A stretch of 64,000 nt of DNA from Anaerolineae bacterium (GTDB taxonomy: Bacteria; Chloroflexota; Anaerolineae; JAAYZQ01), in NCBI GenBank assembly GCA_034435455.1, contig DAOTXL010000137.1, positions 54,687 to 118,686 on the forward strand, in the 5' to 3' direction. How positions within the stretch are numbered: position 1 is the stretch's first letter; the number at the start of each line of letters is the position of its first letter. The translations under genes and the position numbers were made by a program. Below the pieces are notes generated by a model. It searched no databases and was not told the DNA's origin. It saw only the letters and a program-made list of their open reading frames with translations. This document shows positions 2,813 through 48,087 of this stretch, piece after piece.

Positions 2813-3940
2813 TTAGCTGACCAGGGCTTTTTCGGCCAGTTCCTTCTCGACCTGGGCAAAGCGGTCCTCTACCGTCTGCTCCCGCACCCAGGTCAGCAGG
2901 TCCCCCATCCCCTCTGACAGCGGGACGCGCGGATCAAAGCCCAGCAACCGGCGGGCCTTGCCCAGGTCGGCGTAGCAGTGGCGGATGTCGCCGGCACGGT
3001 ACTGGTGCCGGATCACGGGCCGGACCTCCCCGTTCGTCAGGTGCTGGCTCAGCATTTCGGCAATCTGGAGGACGGAGGTCGGCACGCCGGTGCCCAGGTT
3101 CAAGACCTGGTAGTCGGCTTCCGGCCGGTCCATGGCCAGCAGCATCCCCTGCACGATGTCACTGACATGGATAAAGTCCCGGCTCTGCAGACCATCTTCA
3201 TAGATGACCGGCGGCTGGCGGTTGAGCAGCCGGCTGGAAAAGATGGCCATGACGCCGGTATAGGGGTTGGAAAGGGCCTGGCGGGGGCCATAGACGTTAA
3301 AGAAGCGGAGCGCCACCGTCGGCAGGCCGTAGGCCAGGCCGGTGCACAGGAACATCTCTTCGTGGTCTCGTTTGGTAACGGCATAGATGGAGGTGGGGAA
3401 CAGCGGCTTGGCCTCGTCGGTCGGGGCGGGGCGTACCTCCCGGCCGCAGTGGGGGCATTTCATCTCCCACTCGCGGGCCTGGAGCTGGGCTTCGGGCCGC
3501 AACCGGGGGTAGACGACGCCGCAGCCGGCACATTCATATTTCCCCTCGCCATAGATCGACATGGACGAGGCGACGATCACCTTGCGCACCGAATGCCTGA
3601 TGTTGGTCAGCAGGTCGAGCAGCGTGGCACCCCCCAGGGTGTTCATTTCGGTATAGTAGCGGATCTGGTACATAGATTGACCCACCCCCACGGTCGCCGC
3701 CAGGTGAAAGACCACCTCTATGCCGTCCAGCGCCCGGCGCAGGGCCTCCGGGTCGCGCACATCCCCCCTGACAAATTCGGCGGCCGGGTTGAGGTAGCCG
3801 GGTACCGCCTGTTGGGGGCCATGCACCTGGGGCACCAGCGCATCGTAGACGCGCACCGTGTCCCCTCGTTCCACCAGCGCATCCACCAGAAATGAACCGA
3901 TGAATCCGGCTCCGCCTGTGACCAGAACCTTTTCTGCCAT
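2813..3940 (-). CDS. NAD-dependent epimerase/dehydratase (SDR) with an inserted CxxC...CxxC zinc-ribbon
   Basis: MAEKVLVTGGAGFIGS Rossmann start; the YxxxK region is present. A GGAGGAATAATG RBS lies upstream and the start overlaps the upstream stop (TAATG). The longer track ORF (to 4528) is a spurious 5' extension into the GT2 gene. Confidence 0.8.
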   Translation of the reverse strand: MAEKVLVTGGAGFIGSFLVDALVERGDTVRVYDALVPQVHGPQQAVPGYLNPAAEFVRGDVRDPEALRRALDGIEVVFHLAATVGVGQSMYQIRYYTEMNTLGGATLLDLLTNIRHSVRKVIVASSMSIYGEGKYECAGCGVVYPRLRPEAQLQAREWEMKCPHCGREVRPAPTDEAKPLFPTSIYAVTKRDHEEMFLCTGLAYGLPTVALRFFNVYGPRQALSNPYTGVMAIFSSRLLNRQPPVIYEDGLQSRDFIHVSDIVQGMLLAMDRPEADYQVLNLGTGVPTSVLQIAEMLSQHLTNGEVRPVIRHQYRAGDIRHCYADLGKARRLLGFDPRVPLSEGMGDLLTWVREQTVEDRFAQVEKELAEKALVS

Positions 3941-4881
3941 TATTCCTCCCCGGTCGCATCCCATAGGTAGCGGATAGAGTATTCCTCTTCTGCCCGAAAG
4001 GTCATGTGGCGCAGCATCTCGCCCAGCAGGCCCACGCTGACAAGCTGGATGCCCACCACCAGGGCGGTGATGCCGAAGAAGAGCAGGGGCCGCCAGCCGA
4101 TCCCCCCCTCGATCAGCCATAACGCCGTCAGGTAGAGCATGATGACCGTGCCGATGGCGGCAAAGAGGCTGCCCGCCAGGCCGAACAGGTGCATGGGACG
4201 CTTCAGATAGGTGGTCAAAAAGAGCACACTGAGAAAGTCCAGATAGCTGCGGACAAAGCGCCGCCCGCCGAACTTGGAACGCCCGAAGCGACGGGGATGG
4301 TGAACGACCGGCACTTCGGCGACCCGATAACCCTTCCAGTGGGCCAGGACCGGGATGTAGCGGTGAAGCTCGCCATACAGGCGGAGCTCCTGAACCACCG
4401 GGCGGCGGTAGACCTTGAAACCGCAGTTGAGGTCGTTGAGCCGGATGCCGGTCAGGGTTGAGACGGTCCAGTTGGCAAAACGGGAAGGCCACCGTTTGGA
4501 GACCGGGTCCTGACGCTTCACCCGCCATGCCCCCACCAGGTCGTACCCTTCCTCCAGCCTGGCCAGCAGCCTGGGCAGTTCGGCCGGGTCATCCTGCAGA
4601 TCGGCATCCAGGGTGACCAGGATCTCGCCCTGCGCCCGGGCAAAGCCGGCACTCAGCGCCGCCGTCTTGCCAAAGTTGCGCCGGAACTGCACGACCCGCA
4701 CGTGGGCCCGGTCTCGTTCGTACAGGTCATGCAGGATGGCCGGGGAGCGGTCGGTGCTGCCATCGTCCACAAAGAGGATCTCGTACGGATAGGGCAGCGA
4801 GCCGGCGACCTGGGTCACCGCCTGGTACAGGAGCTCCAGCGAACCTTCCTCGTTGAGCACCGGGATGACAAACGAAATCAT
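3940..4881 (-). CDS. GT2 polyprenyl-phosphate glycosyltransferase (DPM1/ArnC/GtrB-like) with C-terminal TM helices
   Basis: MISFVIPVLNEEGS...DDGSTD...DADLQDD motifs, followed by 2 TM segments. The start could instead be the upstream GTG/ATG (4896/4911). Confidence 0.75.
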   Translation of the reverse strand: MISFVIPVLNEEGSLELLYQAVTQVAGSLPYPYEILFVDDGSTDRSPAILHDLYERDRAHVRVVQFRRNFGKTAALSAGFARAQGEILVTLDADLQDDPAELPRLLARLEEGYDLVGAWRVKRQDPVSKRWPSRFANWTVSTLTGIRLNDLNCGFKVYRRPVVQELRLYGELHRYIPVLAHWKGYRVAEVPVVHHPRRFGRSKFGGRRFVRSYLDFLSVLFLTTYLKRPMHLFGLAGSLFAAIGTVIMLYLTALWLIEGGIGWRPLLFFGITALVVGIQLVSVGLLGEMLRHMTFRAEEEYSIRYLWDATGEE

Positions 4882-5013
4882 TGTGGTTTGATCCATCAGC
4901 CAGATATCCACCGGTCAGGCAACGGAAGCCATTATATCACGAAAGGGAGGCATTTCCAAATGGGCCGGCCCGGCAGATTGTCAGCGATCGGGTTCCCTGG
5001 TATAATGACTGCT

Positions 5014-6117
5014 ATGAGAGGAAGGGGATGCTGGGGGCGGGCTTTGTTGGCGGCGCTGGCTCTGCTGGCCGGCGTGCCGCTCTCACCGCTGGTGACCCTG
5101 GGGCCACAACAGGTGGTGCCCAGTGTCAACCCCAAGTTGGGTGTCCACACCCGGCTGACCGACGAGGTCGAGCCGTGGAAGATCAAGCGCACGCTGGAAA
5201 TGGTGCGCGAGATGGGGGCGAGCTGGATCGTCGAATATTTCCCCTGGGCCTATTCCGAGCCGACGCCGGGCCGCTTTGACTGGAGCCACGCCGACCTGGT
5301 GGTGGATCACGCCCGCCGCCAGGGGTTGACCGTCATCGCCCGGTTGGGCTTTGTGCCCGAGTGGGCCCGGCCCGATCCGACGGTGCAGCCGACAACCTTT
5401 ACCTACCTGGACGAGGAGCATTATGACGATTTTGCCCGCTATGTCGCCGCTTTCGCGGAGCATTTTCGCGGGCGCGTGAGCCACATCGTCGTCTGGAATG
5501 AGCCGAACATCAGCCTGGAATGGGGCTATCGCCCGGTGGACCCGGAGGGCTATGTGGAACTGTTGCGTGCCGTCTATCCCCGCGCCAGGGCTGCCAACCC
5601 CGATCTGGTTGTGCTGGGTGGGGCACTGGCTCCCACCCTGGCCCCTGTGGGCGACCCGGAGGGCATGAACGACCTGGACTACCTGCGGCGGATGCTGGCT
5701 GCCGGAGCGGGCGAGGTGATGGACGGGCTGGCCGTCCACGCCTATGGCTGGCAAAAGCCACCCGATGCCCCGGCCAACCCCGCTGAGGTGAACTGGAACC
5801 GCACGGAGCTGCTCCGTCAACTGCTGGTCGAGGCCGGCTACGCCGACCTGCCGATTTACATCACCGAAGGGGGCTGGAACGACCATCCCCGCTGGACCAA
5901 GGCGGTGCCCCCTGCACAGCGGGCGGCCTTTACCGTGCAGGCCTATCGGCAGGCGTTGGAAGAGTGGCCCTGGTGCCGGGCGGTCGTCCTGTGGGCCTTC
6001 CGCTTTCCTCGCCCGGCCAACACCTACCAGGACTATTTCACCTTTGTCGGTGCCGATTTCACGCCCAGGCCGATCTACTTTGCCGTGCAACGCTATGCCC
6101 GGGGGGAGGGGCCATGA
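5014..6117 (+). CDS. Secreted/anchored clan GH-A glycoside hydrolase (GH5/GH39-like)
   Basis: N-terminal hydrophobic signal; VVWNEPN acid/base motif and ITEGGW nucleophile motif. A TATAAT box sits 8 nt upstream of the ATG (possibly leaderless). The start is uncertain (5005/5014). Confidence 0.6.
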   Translation: MRGRGCWGRALLAALALLAGVPLSPLVTLGPQQVVPSVNPKLGVHTRLTDEVEPWKIKRTLEMVREMGASWIVEYFPWAYSEPTPGRFDWSHADLVVDHARRQGLTVIARLGFVPEWARPDPTVQPTTFTYLDEEHYDDFARYVAAFAEHFRGRVSHIVVWNEPNISLEWGYRPVDPEGYVELLRAVYPRARAANPDLVVLGGALAPTLAPVGDPEGMNDLDYLRRMLAAGAGEVMDGLAVHAYGWQKPPDAPANPAEVNWNRTELLRQLLVEAGYADLPIYITEGGWNDHPRWTKAVPPAQRAAFTVQAYRQALEEWPWCRAVVLWAFRFPRPANTYQDYFTFVGADFTPRPIYFAVQRYARGEGP

Positions 6118-6914
6118 CGGCCAGGCAGCGGTGGCTGCTCGCCGCGATTCTCATGGCGGTGCTGCTGGCGGTGGGGCTGTGGCTGCTGCGGCGGGTGTTG
6201 CCGCCGGCGGTGGATCCAACCTGGGAGCGGGTGGTGGAGACAGGCGTGCTGCGGGTGTGCACCGACCCCAGTTGGCCTCCCTTTGAATTTGTGGATGAGG
6301 GGACCGGGCAGGTCCGGGGGTTCGACATGGAGCTGGCCGGATTGCTGGCGGCCCGGTTGGTGCCGCGTGGGCGTGCCCAGATCGTTTCTGTCGGCTTTGA
6401 TGGGCTGTACGATGCGCTGCTGGCGGGCCGCTGCGATGCCGTCCTCTCGGCCCTGCCCTACGAACCGCTGCGCACCCGCGATGTGGCCTACTCGGTGGCC
6501 TACTTTAACGCCGGGCTGGTGTTGGTGGTGCGGGAAGGAACCACCGATATCGAGGCGCCCGAGGACTTGGCCGGCCGGGCGGTGGGCGTCGAGTGGGGCT
6601 TTGTGCCGGAGGGCGATAGCCGGCAGCGGCTTTTTCTGCAGAGCCTGGGCCTGCGCCGTTACAACACGCCGCTGGACGCGCTCCGCGCCCTGCAGGCCGG
6701 TGAGGTGGAGGCGGCGCTGGTGGATCGCATCACCGCTCTGGCCTATCTACGCGATTGCCGGGGGTTGCGCATCGTTGGCCGACCCCTCACCGACCTGAAC
6801 TACGTCATCCCGGTGCGGCCTGATAGCTTCCGGCTGCTGGAAGAGGTCAACCGGGTGCTGCTAGAGATGCGCCGGGATGGCACGCTGGAACAGCTCCAGG
6901 AGGCGTGGTTTTGA
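6114..6914 (+). CDS. ABC transporter substrate-binding protein, family 3 (polar amino-acid type)
   Basis: Signal/TM anchor then an SBP_bac_3-like core (VGFDGLYDALLAGRCDAVLSALP...). GGGGGGAGGGG RBS; the ATG overlaps the upstream stop. Confidence 0.65.
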   Translation: MTARQRWLLAAILMAVLLAVGLWLLRRVLPPAVDPTWERVVETGVLRVCTDPSWPPFEFVDEGTGQVRGFDMELAGLLAARLVPRGRAQIVSVGFDGLYDALLAGRCDAVLSALPYEPLRTRDVAYSVAYFNAGLVLVVREGTTDIEAPEDLAGRAVGVEWGFVPEGDSRQRLFLQSLGLRRYNTPLDALRALQAGEVEAALVDRITALAYLRDCRGLRIVGRPLTDLNYVIPVRPDSFRLLEEVNRVLLEMRRDGTLEQLQEAWF

Positions 6915-7706: not shown

Positions 7707-10028
7707 CTACTCCTGGTTCCCCCGCTTCTGGATGCCGTCCAGATAGGCGACGTCGCCGGTGTTCAGGTCGGCGGCGTTGGCTTCGTCGGTGTCCAGGTGC
7801 AATTCCAGCTTGAATTTGGGTGAAACCCGCACCACCACGTCGCCAAAGATCAGCTCCCGTTCGTCGCCGGCCCGGACGCGTACCACATCGCCGTCCTGCA
7901 GGCCGAGGCGGCGGGCGTCGTCGGGCGTCATGTGGATATGCCGCTGGGCATAGATGACGCCGTTTTTGATCTCGATCTGGCCGGCCGGGCCTTCCAGGAT
8001 CAGCCCCGGCGTGCCGTCCAGATCGCCCGACAGGCGCACAGGGGCGTTGATGCCCAGCCGGTAGCCCTCTGTCCGGGAGATCTCCACCTGGGTCAGGGTG
8101 CGTGCCGGGCCGAGGACCCGGACGTTCTCTATGCTGCTGCGGGGGCCGATGAGCCGCACCGTCTCTTCGGCGGCGTACTGGCCCGGCTGCGACAGGGGGG
8201 AGCGGGGGGTGAGTTGATGGCCGGCGCCGAACAACCGCTCCACGTCGGCCTGGCTCAGGTGGACGTGGTGGGCCGACACGCCGATGGGGATCGGGATTTT
8301 GCTGGCCTGCATCTGGCGGGTGATGGCCTGGTAGCCCAGGATGCGGATCGTCTCGCGGGCGATCATGCGCGAGGCATCCGAGTGAATGACCAGCACCTTG
8401 ACTTTGGAATCGGGGTGGGAGATCTCTTCCACGCCCGTTACCCCGTCGCGCACCGTCCGGTTTCTGACGGCGTCTATCAGGATGCCCAGGCCCCACATCC
8501 CCTGACAGGCCAGGGCCCGCACCCCGGCCGCGTTCTCCCCGATGCCGCCGGTAAAGACCAGCACATCCAGGCCGCCCAGGACAGCATAGTAGGCGCCGAT
8601 ATACTTGCGCACCCGGTAGGCAAACACCTCGGCGGCCAGCAGGGCCCTGGAGTCGCCGGCGTTGGCCGCAGCGGCGATCTCACGGGTATCGCCCGACAGC
8701 CCCGATAGCCCCTTCAGGCCGCTCTCCCGGTTCAGCAGGTCGTCGATCTGATCGGCCGACAGCCCCTGACGCATCAGGTAGGTGACGATAGCCGGGTCCA
8801 GGTCGCCAGAGCGGGTGACCATGACCAGTCCCTCCAGGGGGGTGAGGCCCATGCTGGTATCCACCGAGCGGCCATGGTCGATGGCGCACACCGAAGCCCC
8901 TTCGCCCAGGTGACAGGTGATGATCTTGAGGCGGGAAAAGGGCCTTTTCAGGTAGGTGGCCGCCATGAGTGCCACATAGTGGTGCGACGGCCCGTGGAAC
9001 CCGTAGCGGCGGATGCCCTCCCTGGTGTACAGTTCCTCCGGCAGGGCGTAGCGATAGGCGTAGGGGGGCATGGTCTGGTGGAAAGCGGTATCGAACACCG
9101 CCACATGGGGCACGTCGGGCAGCAGTTCGCGCAGCCACTCGATGCCCTGGGCCTGCATCGGGTTGTGGAGGGGGGCCAGGGGGGCCAGGCGGCGGATGTC
9201 GGCCAGCACCTGGTCGTCAATCACCACGGGGTTGGAGTACTTGTCGCCGCCATGGACCACCCGGTGGCCAACGGCTGTGATCTCGCCCAGGTCCTTGATG
9301 ACGCCGATCCTGGGATCGGTCAGCCGGTCGAGGACGGCCTGGAGCGCCTGCCGATGGTCGGCCTGGCCTAGCTCGAAGCGGTGCTCGCCGCTGACGGTCC
9401 GGTGGGTCTGGAGGGTGCCCGGCCGGTCAATCCATTCGATCTGCCCTTCGACATGGTGGCTTTCGTCGCCGGTGTCGAAAAAGCGGTACTTGAGCGACCC
9501 GGTGCGCAGGTTGATAACCAATATCTTTTGGGGACCTTCGGGGCCGGGGGTCAGGTTCAGGCCGTAGGGATCGGCCTCTTTTTCGGCCTGCTGGCGGATA
9601 TGTTCTTCTCTGTCTCGCTCGATCAACGTGCCGCGCCGGGCGACGGTCCTGGCAAAACGTTGGAGGGCTGCCGGATCGGCCTGGACCCAGCGGTGAAACA
9701 GATGGCCCGGCACCAGCAGCACCTGGCAGGGGGTGGTGGCGATCACATCTACCGGGGAGGGGATGCCGGCCATCAGCGACAGGGTGCCCAGCTCGCCGCC
9801 GGCCCGGATCGTATCCAGCCGGCGCGGCTCTCCCTCTTGTTCGGCGGTGAAAAAGCCGGCCTCTCCTTCCAGGATCACCCCGAAAAAGGTGAACGGCTGG
9901 CCAAAGGGGACGATCACCTCGCCCGGCGCATAGGGTGCGATCTGGGCCTGTTCCTCAATGGCCTGGGCGATCTCGGGCGGCAGGCCTTCAAAGACCGGGT
10001 ACCGGTTCAGGATTTCTCGCGTAATCAT
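7707..10028 (-). CDS. Tri-domain fusion: cNMP-binding domain + acetate/propionate kinase + PduL-type phosphate acyltransferase
   Basis: The N-terminus has a CAP effector domain (FFGVILEG...ELGTLSLMAG). The middle is AckA (ILVINLRTGS, VVHGGDKYS, HGPSHHYV, ITCHLGEGASVCAIDHGRSVDTSMG, VFTGGIGENAA). The C-terminus aligns nearly residue-for-residue with Salmonella PduL (GVSAHHVHLS, SQPGQYAAEETVRLIGP, AQRHIHMTP, HLDTDEANAA). Confidence 0.85.
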   Translation of the reverse strand: MITREILNRYPVFEGLPPEIAQAIEEQAQIAPYAPGEVIVPFGQPFTFFGVILEGEAGFFTAEQEGEPRRLDTIRAGGELGTLSLMAGIPSPVDVIATTPCQVLLVPGHLFHRWVQADPAALQRFARTVARRGTLIERDREEHIRQQAEKEADPYGLNLTPGPEGPQKILVINLRTGSLKYRFFDTGDESHHVEGQIEWIDRPGTLQTHRTVSGEHRFELGQADHRQALQAVLDRLTDPRIGVIKDLGEITAVGHRVVHGGDKYSNPVVIDDQVLADIRRLAPLAPLHNPMQAQGIEWLRELLPDVPHVAVFDTAFHQTMPPYAYRYALPEELYTREGIRRYGFHGPSHHYVALMAATYLKRPFSRLKIITCHLGEGASVCAIDHGRSVDTSMGLTPLEGLVMVTRSGDLDPAIVTYLMRQGLSADQIDDLLNRESGLKGLSGLSGDTREIAAAANAGDSRALLAAEVFAYRVRKYIGAYYAVLGGLDVLVFTGGIGENAAGVRALACQGMWGLGILIDAVRNRTVRDGVTGVEEISHPDSKVKVLVIHSDASRMIARETIRILGYQAITRQMQASKIPIPIGVSAHHVHLSQADVERLFGAGHQLTPRSPLSQPGQYAAEETVRLIGPRSSIENVRVLGPARTLTQVEISRTEGYRLGINAPVRLSGDLDGTPGLILEGPAGQIEIKNGVIYAQRHIHMTPDDARRLGLQDGDVVRVRAGDERELIFGDVVVRVSPKFKLELHLDTDEANAADLNTGDVAYLDGIQKRGNQE

Positions 10029-10091
10029 AGACTCCTCACCCGTGATGGTTGCTTTTCTTCCTGACCTGGCAGGCTGTGGCAGGACGGAGCT

Positions 10092-10119
10092 ATTATACCA
10101 CCTTTCCTTTCGGCAGCAA
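10092..10119 (-). promoter_or_regulatory. Sigma70-like promoter (TTGCTG-N16-TGgTATAAT) for the kinase fusion gene
   Basis: Hexamers read on the minus strand; leader of about 55 nt to the GGTGAGGAG RBS. Confidence 0.4.
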
Positions 10120-10122
10120 AGA

Positions 10123-10156
10123 CAGGCCTCCGAGGTTTCCCGAACCCCGGAGGCCT
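10123..10156 (-). terminator. Hairpin downstream of the rubrerythrin-like gene (10-bp perfect stem CAGGCCTCCG/CGGAGGCCTG)
   Basis: Stem-loop followed on the minus strand by a weak U-tract (UCUUUGCUG). Confidence 0.35.
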
Positions 10157-10204
10157 GTGATGTGGGCTCTCCGATGGCTTTCCAGGAGGGTACTGCCGGT
10201 ATGA

Positions 10205-10666
10205 TCAGAAGTCGCGGTAGATGACCTCTTCGTACCAGCCTTCTACCAGGTTTTTGTGCCGGAGTTCATCTTTGGCCATGGCCTCGAACAGGTCGCGGAT
10301 CTCGCCCTCGTTCTGCTCTGCCAGGTCGCGGTATAGCTCATAAGACTGCTGTTCTTTCCGCGAGGCAAAGATGCACACATCCTGGAAGGTCGAGTCGGGT
10401 CCCAGCGGCTGGACAACCAGATGATCGCCGATCTTGTAGTCCTGGATGGGGGCCTGTTGCAGGCGTCGGACGGCCCGGCGGACGCTGCCGGGGCTGGCCA
10501 GCATCCGTTCCAGGGCGGCTTTGTGCCCCAGTTCCTCCTGGGCGAGCTGGCGCAACGTCTCTTTGACATGCTCGGCCTTGACCAGGGCCACGGCGTGGGT
10601 GTACAGTTCATGAGATTCGATCTCACCCTGGATCGCTTCTTTCAGGATCTCTTCAATGGCAGACAT
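10205..10666 (-). CDS. Rubrerythrin/ferritin-like diiron protein
   Basis: Two E-x-x-H motifs (EELGHKAALERM, DELRHKNLVEG). AAGGAG RBS 6 nt before the ATG (MSAIEE...). The track ORF's TTG extension was rejected. Confidence 0.6.
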   Translation of the reverse strand: MSAIEEILKEAIQGEIESHELYTHAVALVKAEHVKETLRQLAQEELGHKAALERMLASPGSVRRAVRRLQQAPIQDYKIGDHLVVQPLGPDSTFQDVCIFASRKEQQSYELYRDLAEQNEGEIRDLFEAMAKDELRHKNLVEGWYEEVIYRDF

Positions 10667-10718
10667 CGTTCGCTCCTTGGTTTTGACTTTCAAAAGTGGC
10701 GGGTGCAGGTCGGCCGGA

Positions 10719-11096
10719 TCACTGCTTCAGCAGCCGGTTGACCTCTTGGACCATCCGCTGCAGTGGGACAGGCTTGGTCAAGAAGGTGTCCAGGTGGATG
10801 TACTCGTCGGTCGGGAACAGTTCGGCATAGTCGGTGTTGGCGATGGAGGTCACCATGATGATCGGAATCTCTTTATAGTCCGGGTGTTCGCTCAGGGCTT
10901 GAGAAACCGACAGGCCGTCCAGGACGGTGGCCATGATGATGTCCAGGATGATCAGGTCGGGGGGTTCCTGGTTGATCTTGCGCAGGGCTTCGTCGCCGCT
11001 GGCGGCGCTGTCAACCTGGTAGCCTGCCTGTTCGAGGGCGATGGAGGTGGCGGCGACAAAGTCGGGATCGTCATCTACCACGAGAATTTTAGCCAT
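10719..11096 (-). CDS. Stand-alone response-regulator receiver domain (CheY-like)
   Basis: MAKILVVDDDPDF...D...ILDIIM...K motifs; GGAGAAGGAAAATG RBS. It overlaps the upstream stop. Confidence 0.8.
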   Translation of the reverse strand: MAKILVVDDDPDFVAATSIALEQAGYQVDSAASGDEALRKINQEPPDLIILDIIMATVLDGLSVSQALSEHPDYKEIPIIMVTSIANTDYAELFPTDEYIHLDTFLTKPVPLQRMVQEVNRLLKQ

Positions 11097-12363
11097 TTTC
11101 CTTCTCCTTACATTGCCGGTAACGGATATGGTCTTGGTATTCATGGCGGAAATGCTGGAGGGAAGAGAGGACCGGGTTCACCACGGCGTCGCCCATGGGG
11201 CACAGGGTATGGCCGGCGATCCCCTGACACAACGATTCCAGACGGTCCAGGTCGTCGGGCTGGCCCTGTCCCTGCACGATGCGGGTCAACGTCTCCAGCA
11301 GGCGCAGGGAACCCATGCGGCAGGGGGTGCACTGGCCACACGACTCGTGGGCGAAAAAGTCGATCAGGCGGCGGGCCACTTCGACCATGCAGGTCCCCTC
11401 TTCCATGACCACGATCGCCCCGGTGCCCAACATGGTGCCGGCCTGGGCCAGCGATTCAAAGTCCATCGGGATGTCAATCTGGTCGGGCAGCAACATCGGC
11501 GTGGAGGCTCCGCCGGGGATCACCGCCTTGAGGGGGCGGTCGCCGCGCATCCCGCCGGCATACTGCTCGAGGAGGGTGCGCAGGGGCGTGCCCAGCGGCA
11601 GTTCATAGTTTCCCGGTCGCCGCACATGCCCGCTGATGCAAAAGAGTTTGGGCCCGGGGCTCTTTTCTGTCCCCATCGTTCGGTACCACTCGGCGCCGTG
11701 CAGGACGATGTGGGGCACGTTGGCCAGCGTTTCGACGTTGTGGACCAGGGTGGGCCGGTTCCAGAAGCCTCTCTGGGTCGGGTAAGGCGGCTTGAGGCGC
11801 GGCTCGCCCCGTTTCCCTTCCAGGGAGTTGATGAGGGCCGTCTCTTCGCCGCAAATGTAGGCCCCTGCCCCCCGGTGCACCGACAGGTCCAGGTCAAAGC
11901 CGCTGCCCAGGATATTTTTGCCCAGGAAGCCGTAGGCATAGGCGTCGTCAATGGCTTTGATCCAGCGTTTGACCCCCAGGAAAAACTCGCCGCGGATGTA
12001 GACAAAGGCGCGATGGGCGCCCACTGCATAGGCAGCGATGATCGTCCCCTCGATGATCGAGTGGGGATCGTGCTCCACCAGCAGGCGGTCTTTGAAGGTC
12101 CCCGGTTCCCCTTCATCGGTGTTGACGCAGAGGTATTTGGCGACCGGTTCTTTGGGCATAAACCCCCACTTGACGCCCGCCGGGAAGCCGGCCCCCCCCC
12201 GTCCCCGCAGGCCGGAAGCTTTGACCAGGGCGATCAGCTCTTCAGGCAACATCTGCAGGGCCTTGCGCAGGGCGGTGTAGCCGCCGCGCTCCAGGTAGAC
12301 GGCGATCCGTTCCGAGTTGGGGATGCCCACGTTGCGCGTCAGGACCGGCGCAAAGGTGCCCAT
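11089..12363 (-). CDS. NuoF/HoxF/FdsB-type NAD(H)-binding FMN + 4Fe-4S flavoprotein
   Basis: GRGGAGFPAGVKW, ICGEETALINSLEG and ESCGQCTPCR motifs. Confidence 0.85.
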   Translation of the reverse strand: MGTFAPVLTRNVGIPNSERIAVYLERGGYTALRKALQMLPEELIALVKASGLRGRGGAGFPAGVKWGFMPKEPVAKYLCVNTDEGEPGTFKDRLLVEHDPHSIIEGTIIAAYAVGAHRAFVYIRGEFFLGVKRWIKAIDDAYAYGFLGKNILGSGFDLDLSVHRGAGAYICGEETALINSLEGKRGEPRLKPPYPTQRGFWNRPTLVHNVETLANVPHIVLHGAEWYRTMGTEKSPGPKLFCISGHVRRPGNYELPLGTPLRTLLEQYAGGMRGDRPLKAVIPGGASTPMLLPDQIDIPMDFESLAQAGTMLGTGAIVVMEEGTCMVEVARRLIDFFAHESCGQCTPCRMGSLRLLETLTRIVQGQGQPDDLDRLESLCQGIAGHTLCPMGDAVVNPVLSSLQHFRHEYQDHIRYRQCKEKENG

Positions 12364-12818
12364 GGGGCTGCCCTCTCGATCAGCTCATCAATCAACAGGT
12401 CCACTTTGGCCGTGGTGAGGTTTTCGTACAGCTCGTCGTTCACCCGCATGGCCGGGGCCGTGCCGCACGAGGCCAGGCATTGCACCGTTTCCAGGGTAAA
12501 CAGGCCATCGGCCGTCGTTTCTCCGACCTGGATTTCCAGTTTGCGCTGCAAATAGTCCACCAGCCGCTCGGCCCCGTCGGCCAGGTAGCAGCTCAACCCC
12601 CGGCAGACCTGGAGCACGTACCGGCCCGCCGGCCGGGTGCGGAACAGGGTGTAGAAGCTGGCCGTGCTGTACACCCCGGCCTGGGGCAGGCCCAGCCGTT
12701 CGGCCACCCGTTCCAGCGCCTCCGGGGAAAGATACCGTTCTTGCTCCTGGGCGATGTAGAGGGCGGTGAGGAGGCGCGCCCGTCTGGCAGGGTCAGGGAC
12801 CTGGGGGCCTGTGGCCAT
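12339..12818 (-). CDS. NuoE/FdsG-type thioredoxin-like [2Fe-2S] subunit
   Basis: CRGLSCYLADG...CLASCGTAPAM cysteine pattern. Confidence 0.85.
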   Translation of the reverse strand: MATGPQVPDPARRARLLTALYIAQEQERYLSPEALERVAERLGLPQAGVYSTASFYTLFRTRPAGRYVLQVCRGLSCYLADGAERLVDYLQRKLEIQVGETTADGLFTLETVQCLASCGTAPAMRVNDELYENLTTAKVDLLIDELIERAAPWAPLRRS

Positions 12819-12860
12819 CAGCCGCTCTCCTTTCCTGGTTCCCTGTGGCCCTGGGGGCCG

Positions 12861-13355
12861 TTATCCTCCCCAGGGCATCTGGGCGTACTCTTCAAAGGCC
12901 CGGTCGTGGAGCGTCTTGAACAGCTTTTCGTGCTGCCGCTCCCAGCCGGCCAGCATCTGGAGCGATTTTCGGGCGGCGGCGTCTTGCACCCGCTCGGCGG
13001 CCAGGTCGTAAAACTCGGCAAAGTCGCGTTCGATGAGATAGGCCATGCGCAGCACCGCCAGGTCGGGCACCATGGCTTCGATAACCGTTTGATCGAGCAG
13101 TTCGCTCACGGCCCGATCGGAGAAAAAGCCCGACCGTTCTAGCTCCAGGCCGGCCTCCGGGCCGGTGTCGCCGGCGGCATCCAGGGCGCTGAGGAGGGTC
13201 TGGATAAACTGGATATGTTTTTCCTCCTCCTGGGCCAACTGCTCGAACACGCCGATAACGGCCGCGTGGCCGAAGCGACCGGCATTGGCCCGGAAAAAGT
13301 CCCGCCCTTCCTCTTCACGTTTCAGGGCGTATTGGTATATTTTTTCCAGGTCCAT
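12861..13355 (-). CDS. Rubrerythrin/ferritin-like diiron protein (second copy in the operon)
   Basis: E-x-x-H pairs (EEEKHIQF, WERQHEKL). CAGGAGGAAACGATG RBS in front of MDLEKIY... Confidence 0.6.
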   Translation of the reverse strand: MDLEKIYQYALKREEEGRDFFRANAGRFGHAAVIGVFEQLAQEEEKHIQFIQTLLSALDAAGDTGPEAGLELERSGFFSDRAVSELLDQTVIEAMVPDLAVLRMAYLIERDFAEFYDLAAERVQDAAARKSLQMLAGWERQHEKLFKTLHDRAFEEYAQMPWGG

Positions 13356-13390
13356 CGTTTCCTCCTGGCAGGGCGAAATGACATCTTGTC

Positions 13391-16090
13391 CTACAACGCT
13401 TCGACCTTGATGGCACACACCTTGAACTGCGGGATCTTGCCGACCGGGTCCAATGCGGCGATGGTCAGCTTGTTGGCTGCTGCTTCGGCAAAGTGCCAGG
13501 CCATGAACACAACGCCCGGATCGGTCCTGGGGCTGACCAGGGCCTCTGCTTCGACGGAGCCGCGCCGCGACGACAGGCGCACCCGTTGGCCGTCGGCGAT
13601 GCCCAGCCGGGCGGCGTCATCGGGGTTGATCTCGACCAGCGGTGCCGGGTAGATGGCCGTCAGCCCGGCCGACCGGCGGGTCATGGAGGTGGTGTGGTAG
13701 TGGTATAGCACCCGGCCGGTGGTCAGGATGAACGGATAGGTCTCGTCCGGCTCCTCGGCGGGCGGTTGCCAGTCCACGGCGCTGAACAGGCCCAGCCCGC
13801 GGCTGAACTTGCCTACGTGCAGGATCGGGGTGCCGGGGTGGTCGGGGTTCGGGCAGGGCCATTGCAGGCCCTGGTCACCGATGCGGTCGTAGGTGATGCC
13901 GGCGTAGCTGGGGGTCAGGCGGTTGATCTCGTCCATGATCTCCCGGGGCGAGGGGTAGGTCAGGCCGTCGTAGCCCATCCGGCGGGCGATCTGGCCGATG
14001 ATCCACCAATCGGGCCGGGCCTCGCCGGGCGATGGCACTGCCGGTCGGACAAACTGCACCCGTCGTTCTGAATTGGTAAAGGTGCCCAGCTTTTCCGCCC
14101 AGCTCTGGGTGGGCAGCACCACGTCGGCCAGGGCCGCTGTCTCGGTGAGGAAAATATCCTGGACCACCAGGAACTCCAGGCTGCGCAGGCACTGTTCGGT
14201 GTGGTTGGCGTCCGGATCAGATAGCAGGGGGTTTTCGCCCATGATGTACAGGGCGCGGATTTCGCCGGTTTCGGCCCGGGATAACATCTCGGTCACCGTC
14301 AGGCCCACTTGATTGGAGAGGGGCACTCCCCAGGCCTCTTCAAACTTTTTCCGACTGGCCTCCAGGGTCACGGCCTGGTAGCCGGTGTAGACGTTGGGCA
14401 GGCCGCCCACATCGCATGCGCCCTGGACGTTGTTCTGACCGCGCAGGGGGTTGACTCCGCCGCCCGGCAGGCCGATATTCCCCAGGAGCATCTGCAAGTT
14501 GGCGCAGCTCAGCACGTTCCGGTGGCCGGTGTTGTGCTGGGTGATGCCCATGGCGTACAGCATCGCGCCCGGTTTGTGGGCCGCCAGCAGGTGGGCCGCT
14601 TCGACGATCTGTTCGGCCGGCACACCGCAGATCGCCGCCACCCGCTCCGGCGGGTATTCCAGGATTTTGGCTTTGAACTCCGCAAAGCCCTCGGTCCGTT
14701 CGGCGACGAACTGTTTGTCGTACAGATCCTCGGTGATCAGGACGTGCATGATGCCGTTGAGCAGGGCGATGTCGGTGCCCGGTTTCTGGCGGATGTGGAG
14801 GGTGGCGTATTCGGCGATGGGGATGGTGCGCGGGTCACACAGGATGATCCGGGCGCCCCGCTGCTTCACCGCCTGGCGGAGCCGCATGCCCAACACCGGG
14901 TGGTTTTCGGTGGTGTTGGAGCCGATGATCAGGTAGATCTGGGCCTGTAGGGCGATATCGTCGAAGGAGTTGGTCATCGCCCCGGAGCCGAAAGCTGTGA
15001 CCAGACCGGTCACGGTCACGCTGTGTCAAAGGCGAGCACAGTGGTCTACATTGTTCGTTCCCATCACAGCGCGGGCGAACTTTTGCATGACATAATTCTC
15101 TTCGTTGGTGCATTTGGCCGAGGCCAGGGCGGCGAACGCCGAGGGCCCATACCGGTCCTTGATCTCCCGCAGCCGGGTGGCAACCAGGTCGAGGGCCTCG
15201 TCCCAGGTGGCCTCTTCCAGCTCGCCCCCCTTTTCTCGACGGATCAAAGGCCGGGTCAGCCGGTCGGGGTGGTGGACGAAATCCCAGCCGAAACGCCCCT
15301 TGACGCAGAGCCAGCCGTGGTTGGCCGGGGCGTCCCACTTGGAAGCCACGCCCAGGATGCGCCCGTCTTTGACCTTGAGGTAGAATTGGCAGCCCACGCC
15401 GCAGTAGGGGCAGGTGGTCGCCACCTGGGTCATCTCCCAGGCCCGGCCCTGACCCTGACCCAGGAGGGGGTGCAGCGCCGCCGTTGGGCACAGTTCGACG
15501 CACATGCCGCAGAATTCGCATGGGCTGTCCTGGAGCGTGCCGTCGAAAGCGGTGCCGATCTTGCTTTCCCAGCCGCGCCAGATGACGCCGATGGCCTCCA
15601 CGCCGTTGATCTCCTGGCAGGCGCGGACGCAACGGCGGCAAAGGACGCACTTGTTATAGTCGCGGATGAAGAACGGGTTAGAGGTGTCCAGGGGGTAGTG
15701 GTGCTGGGCGCCGGGGAAGCGGCTCTGTTTGATGCCGTATTGATAGGCCAGGTCTTGTAGCTCGCAGCTCCCCGTCCGCTCGCAGGTCATGCAATCCAGG
15801 GGATGGTCCGAGAGCAGCAGTTCCAGGACAAACCGCCGGGCTTCCTCCACCTGGGGCGAGTGGGTCTTGACCTCCAGGCCATGGGTTGCCGGAAAGGTGC
15901 AGGCCGGTTGCAGCGTCCGCTGCTGCGCCACTTCTACCAGACACAGGCGGCAGGCACCGATGGGGGCCAGGGCGGGGTGATGGCACAGGGTGGGGATTTT
16001 GATGCCCGCGGCGGTGGCTACCTCCAGGATCGTCTGCCCCTCTCGGGTCTGGATTTTCTGTCCGTTGATGGTAAGGGTCACCGTTGTCAT
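13391..16090 (-). CDS. fdhA: Formate dehydrogenase catalytic (alpha) subunit, selenocysteine-containing: N-terminal 2Fe-2S/4Fe-4S (NuoG-like) domains plus molybdopterin domain
   Basis: ORFs 15026..16090 and 13391..15019 are in the same frame and separated only by TGA. Read-through gives ...[33 protein letters not shown], which aligns to E. coli FdhF ...CARV-U-HGPSVAGLHQSVGNGAMSN. Confidence 0.8.
14990..15025 (-). ncRNA. SECIS-like hairpin directly 3' of the in-frame UGA
   Basis: mRNA reads UGA CAC AGC GUGACC-GUGACC-GGUCU-GGUCAC: a 6-bp stem with a GGUCU apical loop about 15 nt after the UGA. E. coli fdhF has GGUCUG at the same place. Confidence 0.5.
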
Positions 16091-16140: not shown

Positions 16141-19100
16141 TTATACCAATGAGCCAACCTGGCGCGGCGGAACCGGCTCGAAGGCCAACTCCATCTCTTG
16201 CAGCCATTCCAGGTCGCAGCGCAGGCAGCGCTTGCATTCCTCCTGGGCTGCCCGCTCGTCCAGCCCCAGCTCTACCTCGCGAAAGTTGCCCCGCCGCTCC
16301 TCCACCGGAAGTTCGGGCATCTCCGGCGGGTGGGCCTGGGCATAGTCGTCCAGGTTGAAGGGCTGGTCCACCACTTCGTAGCCGGGTATGGTGATGATCG
16401 GCTCCACCCTGCCGGTTTGCAGATAATAGTCCACCGTCCGGGCCACAGCGTTGCCCTGGGCCACAGCTTCGACCACCGAAGCCGGCCCGCTGACGGCGTC
16501 GCCGGCAGCAAAGACGCCGGGGCGGGAAGTGGCCAGGGCGTCGTTCACGAGCAGGGTGTTGTCCCGCCGCACCTCGACCTGCCCTGCCAGCCCATCCGGG
16601 TCGGGTGTCTGGCCGATGGCCGGGATCAGCACATCCAGGTCGAGGACGAACTCGGAACCGGAGAGCGGCACCGGGCGGCGGCGGCCACTTCGGTCGAATT
16701 CGCCCAGGGTGTGGCGCAGGCATTCCACGCCGGTGACGTGGCCGTCGCCCAACACCCGGGTAGGGTTGGTCAAAAAGTGAAAGACCGTGCCTTCCTCTTC
16801 GGCAGCCTCGATCTCCTCTTTGTAGGCCGGCATCTCGTCGCGGCGCCGCCGGTAGAGGATGTGCACCTGGCTGGCGCCCAGCCGCCAGGCCGTGCGCGCG
16901 GCGTCAATGGCCACGTTGCCGCCGCCGACCACGCCGACCCGTTTGCCCTTCAGGTCGGGGGCATGGCCCAGGGCCACGTCGCGCAAAAAGTCCACACCGT
17001 GGATGACCCCCTCCTTTTCCTCCCCTTCAATCCGCAACCGGCCGCTATAGTGGGCGCCGATGGCCAGCACCACGGCGCTGTATCCCTGCTCCAGGAGGGA
17101 GTCCAGGGTAAAGTCGCGGCCCAGGGCTTGATTGCAGCGGATCTCGACGCCGGCGCGGCGGATGTTGTCAATTTCGACCTGGAGGATCTCCTTGGGCAGG
17201 CGGTAATCGGGGATGCCCACGGCCATCATCCCGCCGGGGATGGGGAGCTTTTCGAATACGGTGACCCTGTACCCCTGTTGGGCCAGGCGCAACGCTGCGG
17301 TCAGGCCGGCCGGACCGGAGCCCACCACCGCCACCTTCTCGGTCTTGGGCTTGCCCAGGAGGGGAGGCGTCCAGGGGTTCTTGAGCTCATGGTCGGCCAT
17401 AAAACGTTTCACGGCGCGGATGGCGATCGGTTCGTCAATGTCGCCGCGCCGGCAGCGGGACTGGCAGAAGGCGGGGCATACCCGACCGCAGACCAGGGGG
17501 AAGGGGTTGGTCCGGCGGTGGATCTCCAGCCCCTCGGCGTAGCGGCCCTGGGCGATGAGGGCCACGTAGCTGGGCACATCCACATCGGCCGGGCAGGCGT
17601 TGGTGCAGCGGGCCCGGACCAGCTCTTTGCAGACGCCGGCCGGGCAGCGCTTTTCCACGATGTGGGCTCGGAACTCGTCCTCAAAGTAGCGCAGCGCCGC
17701 GTTGATCGGCCCCGGTGTCAGTTGCCCCAGGGCGCACAGGCTGCCGGTTTCCATCCCAGCCGCGATCTGGCGGATGGCATCCAGGTCTTCTAGCCGACCC
17801 TGCCCCTTGGTGATGCGGGCCAGCACCTCCAGCAGCCGCTTGCCGCCCATGCGGCAGGGGATACATTTGCCACAGCTCTCGGCGGTGGCAAAGGTCAGGA
17901 AGAACCTGGCGAACTCGACCATGCAGGTGTCTTCGTCCACCACGATCATGCCGCCGGAGCCCATCACCGCGCCCACTTCTTTGAGGGAGTCGAAATCCAC
18001 CCGCACATTCAGGTGTTCGGCGGGGATGCAGCCACCCAGCGGGCCGCCGGTCTGCACGGCCTTGAACCTTTTGCCGTTGGGCACGCCACCGCCGATGTCA
18101 AAGATAATCTCCCCCAGGGTGATGCCCATGGGAACCTCAACCAGGCCGGTGTTGTTCACCTTGCCGGTGAGGGCAAAGATGGCCGTGCCGGGGGAACGGG
18201 GCGAGCCGATGTTGGCAAACCATTCTGCCCCGCGCAGGATGATCTGCGGCACGTTGCAGTAGCTCTTGACGTTGTTCAGGTTGGTGGGTTTGTTCCACAA
18301 CCCCCGGACGGCGGGGAAGGGAGGGCGGGGGCGGGGTTCGCCGCGGCGGCCTTCGATGGAGGCTAGCAGCGCCGTCTCTTCGCCGCAGACAAAAGCGCCC
18401 GCGCCCTCTTTGACATAAAGGCGGAAGGAGAAGTTGGACCCCAGGATATTGTCCCCCAACAGCCCATATTCCTCGGCCTGGGCGATGGCGATCTTGAGGC
18501 GTTTGATGGCCAGCGGATACTCGGCCCGGCAATAGATGTACCCTTCCCGGGCCCCCACCGCGTAGCCACAGATGGTCATCCCTTCGATCAGGCTGTGGGG
18601 GTCACCTTCGATAAGGGAACGGTCCATGAAGGCCCCCGGGTCCCCCTCATCGGCGTTGCACACCACATATTTGACGTCGCCGGGCGCCTTGGCGGTCAGC
18701 TCCCATTTGATGCCGGTGGCAAAACCGGCGCCACCTCGCCCCCGCAGCCTGGAGGCTTTGACCTCTTCGATCACTTCGGCCGGTGTCATGGAGGACAGGA
18801 CCTTGACGAGGGCCTGATAACCATCCCGGGCGATATATTCCTCGATATTCTCCGGGTCGATCATGCCGCAGTTGCGCAGGGTGATGCGCAGTTGTTTGCT
18901 GTAGAAGGGGATTTCGCCGTAGAACGGCACGGCCTGGTGGGCCGAAGGCTCCTTGTAGGTCAGCCGTTCTACCACACGCCCTTTGAGCAGCGTCTCTTCG
19001 ACCAGAAACGGGACATCTTCTGGTTGGACCTGACAGTAAAAGATGCCGTCGGGGTAGATGATCATCACCGGCCCCATGGCACAGAACCCCCGGCAGCCGG

Positions 19101-19242
19101 TGTGCACCACCTGGACCTCACCTGCCAGCCCCTGGCGTTCGACCTCCTGCACCAGGGCCTGGTAGACGCCGGTCGATCCAGAGGCTTCGCAGCCGGTTCC
19201 GCCGCAGACCAGCACACTGGCCCGATAGATTGCTTCGGTCAT
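16141..19242 (-). CDS. Multidomain flavoprotein: NuoE-like [2Fe-2S] + NuoF-like (FMN/NAD, 4Fe-4S) + 2x[4Fe-4S] + GltD/NfnB-like FAD/NAD(P) oxidoreductase domain
   Basis: 1033 aa. VLVCGGTGCEASGS...CRGFCAMGP, then GRGGAGFATGIKW and ESCGKCIPCR, then two CxxCxxCxxxCP ferredoxin motifs, then VAVVGSGPAGLTAA...VGVVGGGNVAIDAAR...VFAAGD. Confidence 0.8.
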   Translation of the reverse strand: MTEAIYRASVLVCGGTGCEASGSTGVYQALVQEVERQGLAGEVQVVHTGCRGFCAMGPVMIIYPDGIFYCQVQPEDVPFLVEETLLKGRVVERLTYKEPSAHQAVPFYGEIPFYSKQLRITLRNCGMIDPENIEEYIARDGYQALVKVLSSMTPAEVIEEVKASRLRGRGGAGFATGIKWELTAKAPGDVKYVVCNADEGDPGAFMDRSLIEGDPHSLIEGMTICGYAVGAREGYIYCRAEYPLAIKRLKIAIAQAEEYGLLGDNILGSNFSFRLYVKEGAGAFVCGEETALLASIEGRRGEPRPRPPFPAVRGLWNKPTNLNNVKSYCNVPQIILRGAEWFANIGSPRSPGTAIFALTGKVNNTGLVEVPMGITLGEIIFDIGGGVPNGKRFKAVQTGGPLGGCIPAEHLNVRVDFDSLKEVGAVMGSGGMIVVDEDTCMVEFARFFLTFATAESCGKCIPCRMGGKRLLEVLARITKGQGRLEDLDAIRQIAAGMETGSLCALGQLTPGPINAALRYFEDEFRAHIVEKRCPAGVCKELVRARCTNACPADVDVPSYVALIAQGRYAEGLEIHRRTNPFPLVCGRVCPAFCQSRCRRGDIDEPIAIRAVKRFMADHELKNPWTPPLLGKPKTEKVAVVGSGPAGLTAALRLAQQGYRVTVFEKLPIPGGMMAVGIPDYRLPKEILQVEIDNIRRAGVEIRCNQALGRDFTLDSLLEQGYSAVVLAIGAHYSGRLRIEGEEKEGVIHGVDFLRDVALGHAPDLKGKRVGVVGGGNVAIDAARTAWRLGASQVHILYRRRRDEMPAYKEEIEAAEEEGTVFHFLTNPTRVLGDGHVTGVECLRHTLGEFDRSGRRRPVPLSGSEFVLDLDVLIPAIGQTPDPDGLAGQVEVRRDNTLLVNDALATSRPGVFAAGDAVSGPASVVEAVAQGNAVARTVDYYLQTGRVEPIITIPGYEVVDQPFNLDDYAQAHPPEMPELPVEERRGNFREVELGLDERAAQEECKRCLRCDLEWLQEMELAFEPVPPRQVGSLV

Positions 19243-45626: not shown

Positions 45627-45703
45627 CTTGAGGGGGTGAGAAAAGAGCAGCATACCGGTTTACGTTCCGTGTGGTGCATGCGAATTGCTATCGGGAGGGA
45701 TGG

Positions 45704-48087
<2,384 letters not shown>

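Follow-up and report, generated by a model that had tools for sequence, protein, structure and literature searches.

The question raised by a 64,000-nucleotide stretch of contig DAOTXL010000137.1 from an Anaerolineae bacterium (the whole stretch is hereafter referred to as the window) is whether one polypeptide can carry both steps of the phosphotransacetylase-acetate kinase (Pta-Ack) pathway, and what a cyclic-nucleotide-binding (CNB) domain would do at its N-terminus. Anaerobes make ATP at the substrate level, and activate acetate with low affinity, mainly by Pta-Ack. An earlier reading made from the letters of the window (the sequence-only reading) had proposed that a minus-strand gene at 7707–10028 encodes a CNB domain, an acetate kinase and a PduL-type phosphotransacylase as one polypeptide, and had suggested that it could be under direct cyclic-nucleotide control. 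Our analysis supports the first proposal, and leads us to consider it probable that the product is a cytosolic, one-chain Pta-Ack enzyme outside any bacterial microcompartment (BMC), with a CNB-like allosteric or dimerisation module for a ligand other than a cyclic nucleotide. The degrees of probability given below to rival explanations overlap with this picture and need not sum to one.

A single intact open reading frame (ORF) on the minus strand (7707..10028), encoding 773 residues, spans the whole fusion (Table 1). All three domains scored above the curated gathering cut-offs of Pfam: cNMP_binding (PF00027) at residues 33–117 (42.4 bits against a cut-off of 27.5), Acetate_kinase (PF00871) at residues 168–558 (model positions 1–392 of 392, 462 bits, E = 1e-138) and PTAC/PduL (PF06130) at residues 581–755 (model positions 1–175 of 176, 255.9 bits, E = 2e-76). 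The NCBIfam models for ackA (TIGR00016; 450.6 bits against 293.4) and phosphate propanoyltransferase (PRK15070; 263.5 bits against 209) were matched as well. An AlphaFold2 model of the full-length protein, built on an 83-sequence family alignment, had a mean predicted local distance difference test score (pLDDT) of 87.6 and a predicted TM-score (pTM) of 0.72. It lays out, in order, a CNB beta-barrel, a helix (residues 119–149), a low-confidence linker (residues ~148–165), the kinase, and a helix (residues 552–574) leading into PduL. In Foldseek searches of the PDB, the kinase module matched Methanosarcina thermophila Ack (1g99; TM-score 0.96, root-mean-square deviation (rmsd) 1.6 Å over 400 columns) with its two-domain ASKHA fold, the PduL module matched Rhodopseudomonas palustris PduL (5cuo; TM-score 0.96–0.97, rmsd 0.9–1.0 Å) with its double beta-barrel fold, and the CNB module matched MloK1 (TM-score 0.78); no solved structure in the PDB covered more than one of the three modules. 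Pfam, NCBIfam and the predicted structure thus agree on the proposed three-part polypeptide.

The sequence-only reading had itself raised the concern that separate genes were joined by an assembly error or a frameshift. We give this explanation a negligible probability: the ~773-residue architecture recurs at about the same length in more than 130 clusters from several phyla, drawn from NCBI, JGI, ENA and Logan assemblies, which effectively refutes it; the architecture is also present in a complete genome (Ca. Brocadia pituitae, AP021856.1), and in the model an unbroken helix connects Ack with the PduL linker.

The size of this family was estimated in two steps. A search space of 5.8 billion proteins contained at least 120 clusters at 72–93% identity to the query, 767–821 residues long (mostly 773) and with the same three Pfam domains, the one exception being a 681-residue fragment (P0110) without a cNMP match. 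An exhaustive HMMER search over 1.84 billion representatives at 50% identity added ~13 full-length three-domain clusters, down to 39% identity, and also turned up ~10 two-domain Ack-PduL proteins as well as CNB-Ack proteins without PduL. Column statistics given below for the family refer to 137 N-termini, 120 of which form one closely related clade. By genome and cluster look-ups, the three-domain form is carried by Anaerolineae, by Ca. Brocadia (including the complete Ca. B. pituitae genome), by Zoogloeaceae, Propionivibrio and other Betaproteobacteria, by another metagenome-assembled genome (MAG) of Pseudomonadota, and by Smithella, Smithellaceae and Syntrophales; CNB-Ack by Ca. Magnetobacterium casensis; and Ack-PduL by Myxococcota, Saprospiraceae and relatives, and Planctomycetota. 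The closest relative (91% identity) is an Anaerolineae MAG, which points to an Anaerolineae-like Chloroflexota genome of ~65% G+C as the source of the window. Named database entries read only ‘acetate kinase’ or ‘acetate/propionate family kinase [Anaerolineae / Chloroflexota]’.

We then compared the catalytic modules with enzymes of known structure. The PduL module aligned with R. palustris PduL without a gap over 184 residues, at 50% identity. Measured against this solved enzyme, the sequence-only reading's description of an almost residue-for-residue match to Salmonella PduL appears overstated. All six Zn ligands are kept (H588, H590, E649, H697, H699 and H744), corresponding to His48, His50 and Glu109 of Zn1 and His157, His159 and His204 of Zn2 in the R. 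palustris enzyme; the roles of the dimetal-site residues have been described (PMC4784909). Kept as well are the phosphate and coenzyme A (CoA) contacts Arg103, Ser127, Ser45, Arg97, Leu99 and Asn211 (R. palustris numbering; Arg103 and Ser127 correspond to R643 and S667), and the sole changed contact is Lys70, replaced by Ser610. Neither the alignment nor the model showed an encapsulation peptide ahead of the module, which begins right after the C-terminal helix of Ack. Erbilgin et al. (2016) had noted PF06130 in multidomain proteins that are annotated as acetate kinases and lack encapsulation peptides, and proposed that such fusion may help channelling (PMC4784909).

The kinase module is 51.5% identical to M. 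thermophila Ack (MtAck; 1g99), the numbering of which is used hereafter for kinase positions. It keeps N7, S12 and K14 in the PHOSPHATE1 loop, and is identical to MtAck at the acetate and phosphoryl-transfer residues (R91, H123, D148, H180 and R241), in the acetate pocket (V93, L122, F179 and P232) and at the ADENOSINE/LOOP4 residues (D283, R285, G331, I332 and N335). N7, K14 and these three groups of residues are present in 100–120 of the 120 clade members, with R91, H123, D148, H180, R241 and the pocket in 103–120.

The pocket bears on whether the protein is instead a microcompartment core enzyme, acting on propionyl-CoA as PduL and PduW of the pdu operon do. PduL enzymes are known above all from BMC loci, and the matching NCBIfam model bears the name phosphate propanoyltransferase. 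However, pocket position 93 is Val, as in acetate kinases, where the propionate kinase TdcD has Ala88, the encapsulation peptide is missing, and no shell genes were found in the 64 kb or beside homologues. Specifically, the annotated large ORFs gave no Pfam match to shell proteins (PF00936/PF03319), small ORFs having been only partly Pfam-scanned; tblastn of the window with PduA and EutN probe sequences gave no match at E<=1; and the homologues' neighbourhoods examined contained no shell genes. We regard the microcompartment explanation as very improbable. Both catalytic modules retain their fold and core residues; they are covalently joined and not BMC-associated. A fused enzyme for acetyl-CoA <-> acetyl-phosphate <-> acetate + ATP outside a microcompartment is well supported as a prediction from these residues, and the earlier proposal that one protein could run acyl-CoA to acyl-phosphate to acid plus ATP holds insofar as both catalytic cores are present. 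The PduL-type dimetal phosphotransacylase would catalyse acetyl-CoA + Pi <-> acetyl-phosphate + CoA, and the AckA-family kinase acetyl-phosphate + ADP <-> acetate + ATP. The fusion probably eases the hand-over of the labile acetyl-phosphate between the sites. In fermenters (Anaerolineae, Smithella) flux would be directed towards acetate, and in acetate consumers possibly towards acetyl-CoA.

The proposed cyclic-nucleotide control was examined at the phosphate-binding cassette (PBC). HMMER alignment with GlxR placed Gly81-Thr82 on the PBC Gly-Glu and Pro90-Ser91-Pro92 on Pro-Arg-Thr, and MAFFT alignment with E. coli CRP gave the same register (E72/T82, R82/S91 and S83/P92). The PBC equivalent of the query, GGELGTLSLMAGIPSPVDVIA, has Thr82 for Glu, Ser91-Pro92 for Arg-Ser/Thr/Ala, and Asp94. 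Across the 137 family N-termini, the Arg column holds Ser in 94, Ala in 32 and nine other residues, with Arg or Lys in none, and the Glu column holds Glu in 88, Asp in 18, Ala in 18, Thr in 7 and Ser in 4. The positions that follow the Arg column are well conserved (P92 in 107, V93 in 114 and D94 in 126), making S-P-V-D a family-specific segment; so are G81 (136), M83 (116) and S84 (120). According to Kannan et al., the canonical PBC reads FGE[LIV]AL[LIMV]X[PV]R209[ANQV], with Arg209 holding the cyclic phosphate, and families with non-canonical PBCs (CooA, CprK, FNR and the ArsR-type ‘GPYPATA’) sense other ligands (PMC2246266). In the T. brucei protein kinase A regulatory subunit (PKA-R), in which this Arg is replaced and Glu occupies the Ala202 position, cAMP activation is lost and a nucleoside pocket gained (PMC10959531). 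Direct cyclic-nucleotide control is therefore unsupported, the alignment having revealed Thr82, Ser91 and Pro92 at the PBC positions and 0/137 Arg or Lys, and canonical cNMP binding by the domain appears unlikely. The sequence-only reading had itself named a loss of these cassette residues as a result that would refute its proposal.

The rival explanation in which cAMP, cGMP or a cyclic dinucleotide binds the N-terminal domain and directly switches Ack-PduL has some points in its favour. The PF00027 match is above its cut-off, and the structural neighbours of a CNB-only model (pLDDT 89, pTM 0.81) at TM-scores of 0.65–0.8 were GlxR, M. tuberculosis CRP, PKG, PKA-R, MloK1 and HCN CNB domains, the nearest structures being cAMP- or cGMP-binding domains. 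Both the Gly and the helix of the PBC are conserved, and the PBC Glu persists in distant family members. The mycobacterial cAMP-dependent acetyltransferase Pat, in which a regulator of acetate metabolism carries a CNB domain, offers a precedent; the query domain has weak matches to it (4orf/4onu), the best sequence matches being 3fx3/3h3z. We nevertheless consider this explanation quite improbable, because the Arg that anchors the phosphate, the key cAMP-phosphate contact, is missing in 137/137 members and followed by Pro in most, Asp replaces the canonical Thr/Ser three residues after the Arg column in 126/137, the Glu that binds the ribose 2'-OH (PKA E200, CRP E72) is Thr82 in the query, and both precedents for losing this Arg, the non-canonical PBCs and T. 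brucei PKA-R, point to other ligands or to abolished cAMP activation. The trypanosomatid ‘ribose-binding cassette’ type was also considered and rejected, since Ser84 of the query occupies the position at which that type requires Glu; with Ser at both diagnostic positions (the Arg position and the Ala202 position), the domain is of neither the canonical nor the T. brucei PKA-R type.

Might the CNB-like domain then bind nothing at all? As a ligand-free structural module, it would dimerise through its long C-helix, as CRP does, and thereby only stabilise or orient the Ack dimer. The helix at residues 119–149 is similar to the CRP dimerisation helix, and Ack enzymes are dimers. The PBC Glu position varies among E, D, A, T and S within the close clade, as under a relaxed constraint on the pocket, and the CNB domain is less conserved (61% among close and 27% among distant members) than Ack (80% and 49%) or PduL (81% and 57%). 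Yet the PBC equivalent is conserved in a family-specific form, from G81 to D94, which suggests a maintained pocket, and the domain has been kept across at least four phyla, also in CNB-Ack proteins that have no PduL. We judge the ligand-free explanation unlikely: both this retention and the conservation of S-P-V-D argue for a domain that still has a role. A word-indexed search for the same CNB domain on other enzymes gave only fragments of the same family.

We thus favour a CNB domain that, with its CRP-like helix, is most likely an allosteric and/or dimerisation module for another small molecule and would tune the flux through the enzyme. A more specific form of this proposal, which we put forward only tentatively, is that the domain is a receptor for a non-cyclic-nucleotide metabolite, bound through the S-P-V-D pocket, and gates a channelling machine whose metal-binding carboxylate has been relocated (see below). 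Candidate ligands would include nucleosides or nucleotides, CoA or acyl-CoA, acetyl-phosphate, and signals of redox or carbon status. If this is true, Anaerolineae, anammox bacteria, Smithella syntrophs and wastewater Betaproteobacteria would share a hitherto unrecognised, widespread point at which substrate-level phosphorylation and the activation of acetate are controlled.

Elsewhere in the window, at 21744-22211 (-), lies a stand-alone 155-residue cNMP_binding protein (69 bits). Its own PBC, FGWSSLVKQQRFTASATA, is non-canonical, making it unusable as a positive control for a canonical PBC. Near it are a histidine kinase, a PHP protein and a CBS-CBS-HATPase protein (20343-21728 (+), 24464-25393 (-)).

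Turning to the phosphate-binding side of the kinase, we found that the statement that the module carries every acetate-kinase signature fails at six hallmark positions (G9R, S10T, S11G, N211E, G239V and E384A). The PHOSPHATE1 hallmark reads N-L-R-T-G-S-L-K against the canonical N-x-G-S-S-S-x-K, the PHOSPHATE2 change N211E corresponds to E376, the LOOP3 change G239V to V404, and E384A to A552. Within the clade, G9R is found in 120/120 and G239V in 119/120 members. In MtAck, Asn211 touches the ATP beta-phosphate and hydrogen-bonds Gly239 (PMC4390882), and Glu384 is a proposed metal ligand (PMC6461089); positions 211, 239 and 384 thus make up one site. When 244 aligned kinases were counted, 122 had an acid at 211 and no Glu384, and 115 had the canonical pair of Asn211 and Glu384; 4 had both an acid at 211 and Glu384, and 3 had neither. 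Two of those with both, P0141 and the plain Ack P0269, look like intermediates. As judged from these residues, the coupled changes read as a compensated relocation of the metal-binding carboxylate from 384 to 211, not as decay. With this move and with G9R and G239V, the enzymes of the clade would still be acetate/ATP kinases, of altered metal-phosphate geometry. The distant three-domain members P0122-P0124 and P0128 have fully canonical kinase motifs.

Several points weigh against the picture of a one-chain Pta-Ack enzyme with a sensor for another ligand. Substitutions at N211 or G239 lower MtAck activity 6- to 200-fold (PMC4390882), and the equivalent of E384A, E385A, abolishes the activity of P. 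gingivalis Ack (PMC6461089). The distant members P0126, P0129 and P0144 have degenerate kinase motifs (PHOSPHATE1/2). Kinase activity could be low, depend on a different metal or donor, or be absent unless E376 compensates. Since 120 of the 137 sequences form one close clade, the residue couplings represent few evolutionary events. At a pTM of 0.72, the arrangement of the domains, and hence channelling, is to be taken as tentative. Loss of the PBC Arg leaves room for weak or non-canonical cNMP binding, the incompatibility in T. brucei PKA-R being ‘not absolute’ (PMC10959531). Finally, a literature search found no paper describing CNB-Ack-PduL and no characterisation of any member.

Taken to their end, the points on the kinase would mean that the kinase of the clade is dead or repurposed, serving another phosphoryl acceptor or donor or acting as a regulatory pseudo-kinase, and that the protein is mainly a phosphotransacylase. 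Besides the loss of the proposed Mg ligand, the changes at N211, G239, G9, S10 and S11 and the degenerate motifs of some distant members, this explanation can call on the PPi-dependent Entamoeba Ack, in which the same fold has switched donor (PMC4390882). We find it distinctly unlikely, however. The acetate, phosphoryl-transfer and adenosine residues are near-invariant in the 120 clade members, implying selection for adenine-nucleotide catalysis; the new carboxylate at 211 appears exactly where that at 384 was lost and is found together with it in P0141 and P0269, which has the look of compensation and not of decay; and G331, which is altered in the PPi enzyme, is kept here.

How does the fusion, read as a sensor-bearing Pta-Ack enzyme, relate to known systems? 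Its predicted chemistry is that of classical Pta-AckA, and its kinase is a true AckA-family member; it differs in using the unrelated PduL fold, in being one chain, and in having an extra CNB domain and a rewired Mg/triphosphate site. With the two-domain Ack-PduL fusions (PMC4784909) it shares the Ack-then-PduL order, the lack of an encapsulation peptide and the presumed benefit of channelling, whereas those proteins have no CNB domain, mostly canonical kinase motifs, and kinases that mostly lie apart from the CNB-bearing ones. The latter statement comes from a neighbour-joining tree of kinase modules, made from the top matches to the query, in which the CNB-bearing kinases fell mostly outside the main Myxococcota/Bacteroidota Ack-PduL group; the tree, crude, midpoint-rooted and unbootstrapped, gives a weak hint. 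Salmonella pdu PduL/PduW and R. palustris PduL (5cuo) have the same PduL fold, all Zn ligands and a kinase partner making ATP from acyl-phosphate, and the fusion differs from them in having no microcompartment, no encapsulation peptide, fused partners, and an acetate- rather than propionate-type pocket.

For the sensor domain, Pat (Rv0998/MSMEG_5458; 4orf, 4onu) likewise has a CNB domain N-terminal to an enzyme controlling acetate and acetyl-CoA metabolism, although its catalytic domain is a GNAT that acts on acetyl-CoA synthetase and not a pathway enzyme itself. Pat has a canonical PBC and binds cAMP. In the CNB folds of CooA (haem), CprK (chlorophenolacetate), the ArsR-type ‘GPYPATA’ proteins and T. 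brucei PKA-R (nucleosides), another residue stands in place of the PBC Arg, and the pocket serves another ligand; none of these proteins has S-P-V-D and none is fused to Ack. The query I-P-S-P-V-D resembles the ‘P-x-P’ ArsR-type PBC and the best sequence match, 3fx3/3h3z.

As to whether the architecture is common and already characterised, which the sequence-only reading had left undecided, it is common; in the way of characterisation, bare Ack-PduL has been mentioned once (PMC4784909). The Pta-Ack pathway and, from one sentence in 2016, the bare Ack-PduL fusion are already known, and the CNB-bearing form, of which the literature search found no description, is new. Genome-centric papers on the relevant organisms list just ‘pta’ and ‘ack’. 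Genome-based models may score pta as missing, because both steps sit in a protein annotated only as ‘acetate kinase’. Anaerobic digestion, anammox and enhanced phosphorus removal depend on the carrier lineages (Anaerolineae, Ca. Brocadia, Smithella/Syntrophales and Propionivibrio-like Betaproteobacteria), and this ecological weight, together with the cNMP-blind CNB domain and the rewired kinase site, makes the family of note. The questions it raises are what a CNB domain without cNMP contacts senses, whether the PduL-Ack fusion channels acetyl-phosphate, which is a global acetyl and phosphoryl donor, and how an Ack works without Glu384. The enzyme also represents a compact one-gene module for ATP regeneration or acetyl-CoA supply in engineering.

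Table 1. Features of the CNB-Ack-PduL gene and its upstream region (positions in the window; aa, amino acid residues)
Feature	Position	Strand	Evidence
Complete CNB-Ack-PduL gene, 773 aa	7707..10028, stop codon included	-	ORF list; Pfam and NCBIfam; full-length homologues of 770-799 aa
Shine-Dalgarno sequence GAGGAG, 3 nt ahead of the ATG at 10028	10032..10037	-	Sequence
N-terminal CNB-fold domain (CAP/CRP-effector-like), aa 1-117	9678..10028	-	PF00027 match; domain model; Foldseek
PBC equivalent, non-canonical, aa 77-97, GGELGTLSLMAGIPSPVDVIA	9738..9800	-	HMMER with GlxR; MAFFT with CRP; column counts over 137 members
Long C-helix (aa 119-149) and low-confidence linker with conserved DPYGL(N)L motif, aa 118-167	9528..9677	-	Model DSSP and pLDDT; linker alignment
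AckA-family acetate kinase module with remodelled PHOSPHATE1/PHOSPHATE2/LOOP3/Glu384 network, aa 168-565	8334..9527	-	PF00871; 1g99 alignment; motif statistics
Ack-to-PduL junction, end of helix aa 552-574 and short linker, no separate encapsulation peptide, aa 566-579	8292..8333	-	Model secondary structure; alignment; PMC4784909
PduL-type phosphotransacylase module, aa 580-760	7749..8291	-	PF06130; gap-free 5cuo alignment; residue mapping
G+C-rich hairpin of 16 bp with CUUUG after it; probably terminates the rubrerythrin-like gene upstream and sets that gene apart from the fusion gene	10122..10158	-	Sequence; RNA fold
Extended -10-like promoter element TGGTATAAT, ~64 nt upstream of the ATG, tentative	10092..10100	-	Read by eye

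The gene lies downstream of, and on the same strand as, a formate dehydrogenase (Fdh) cluster consisting of a NuoF-GltD fusion, a selenocysteine FdhA, a ferritin-like protein, NuoE, NuoF, a REC protein and a rubrerythrin-like protein. We rejected the possibility of a conserved operon with this Fdh/NuoEF/rubrerythrin/REC cluster: the synteny was found only in the 91%-identical relative (L001) and was gone at 75% identity and in all other lineages examined, and the hairpin and the -10-like element intervene. The hairpin folds at -38 kcal/mol (z = -4.0; none of 200 shuffles was as stable), while its T-tract is short and a terminator scan gave no call there. A consensus promoter scan found no -35/-10 pair upstream of the fusion gene, the -10-like element being a reading by eye. 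A riboswitch or other known RNA in the 5' region was likewise rejected, as no Rfam family reached its gathering score across the window; near the gene there was only a sub-threshold match to the sodF small RNA (E = 0.2). The neighbourhoods of other family members contain unrelated central-carbon or housekeeping genes, and the fusion gene behaves as a stand-alone central-metabolism gene. In Ca. Brocadia pituitae (AP021856.1; locus L005), a gene at 3060-6350 for a 1096-residue RpiB-transaldolase-PGI fusion lies just upstream of CNB-Ack-PduL, and a Zn alcohol dehydrogenase gene lies downstream.

Some further features of the Fdh cluster were recorded. It is headed by a gene at 16141-19242 (-) for a 1033-residue fusion of NuoE-like, NuoF, 4Fe-4S and GltD-like pyridine-nucleotide oxidoreductase parts. 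FdhA (13391-16090 (-)) consists of two ORFs joined by an in-frame TGA at 15026-15028 within HCARL-U-HSVTV, a classic selenocysteine site; the selenocysteine call rests on this motif and the reading frame, as the fold downstream of the UGA, where a selenocysteine insertion sequence (SECIS) hairpin would lie, was no better than shuffles (z = -0.87). The segment at 10205-13418 (-) encodes a second NuoE/NuoF pair, two rubrerythrin/ferritin-like proteins and a single-domain response regulator, the likely start of which overlaps the nuoF stop.

Side observations on the family concern its linker and other fusions of Ack. The linker just ahead of the kinase (residues ~147–167; 9528-9590 (-)) carries a motif, DPY[GD]L(N)[LF], that extends from Anaerolineae to Smithella-type and Magnetobacterium-type proteins and also occurs at the N-terminus of the two-domain Ack-PduL protein P0131; it may serve in docking or be left over from the loss of a CNB domain. 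Among the representatives were three other Ack fusions (P0208, P0262 and P0245): two, of 759 and 1132 residues, join Ack to an apparent classical Pta, as identified by motif reading only, and one, of 586 residues, has a REC-like N-terminus on Ack. It appears that Ack has repeatedly acquired partners or sensors.

Two other loci of the window were noted. At 26614-28269 (+) is a gene for a RACo-type reductive activator of corrinoid proteins (2Fe-2S, RACo middle and ASKHA C-terminal parts), a hint that the genome encodes Wood-Ljungdahl or other metabolism based on corrinoid methyl transfer. At 43485-46801 (+), a gene for an ADP-forming acetyl-CoA synthetase (713 residues) is followed by one for a 376-residue orphan protein with AAA_26 and DRTGG domains, and then by the enolase gene. 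With the synthetase, the organism has another way of converting acetyl-CoA to acetate + ATP, in a single step. The orphan corresponds to the N-terminal regulatory half of a class-II Pta and lacks the catalytic PTA_PTB domain; it is possibly a regulatory subunit of the ADP-forming acetyl-CoA synthetase route.

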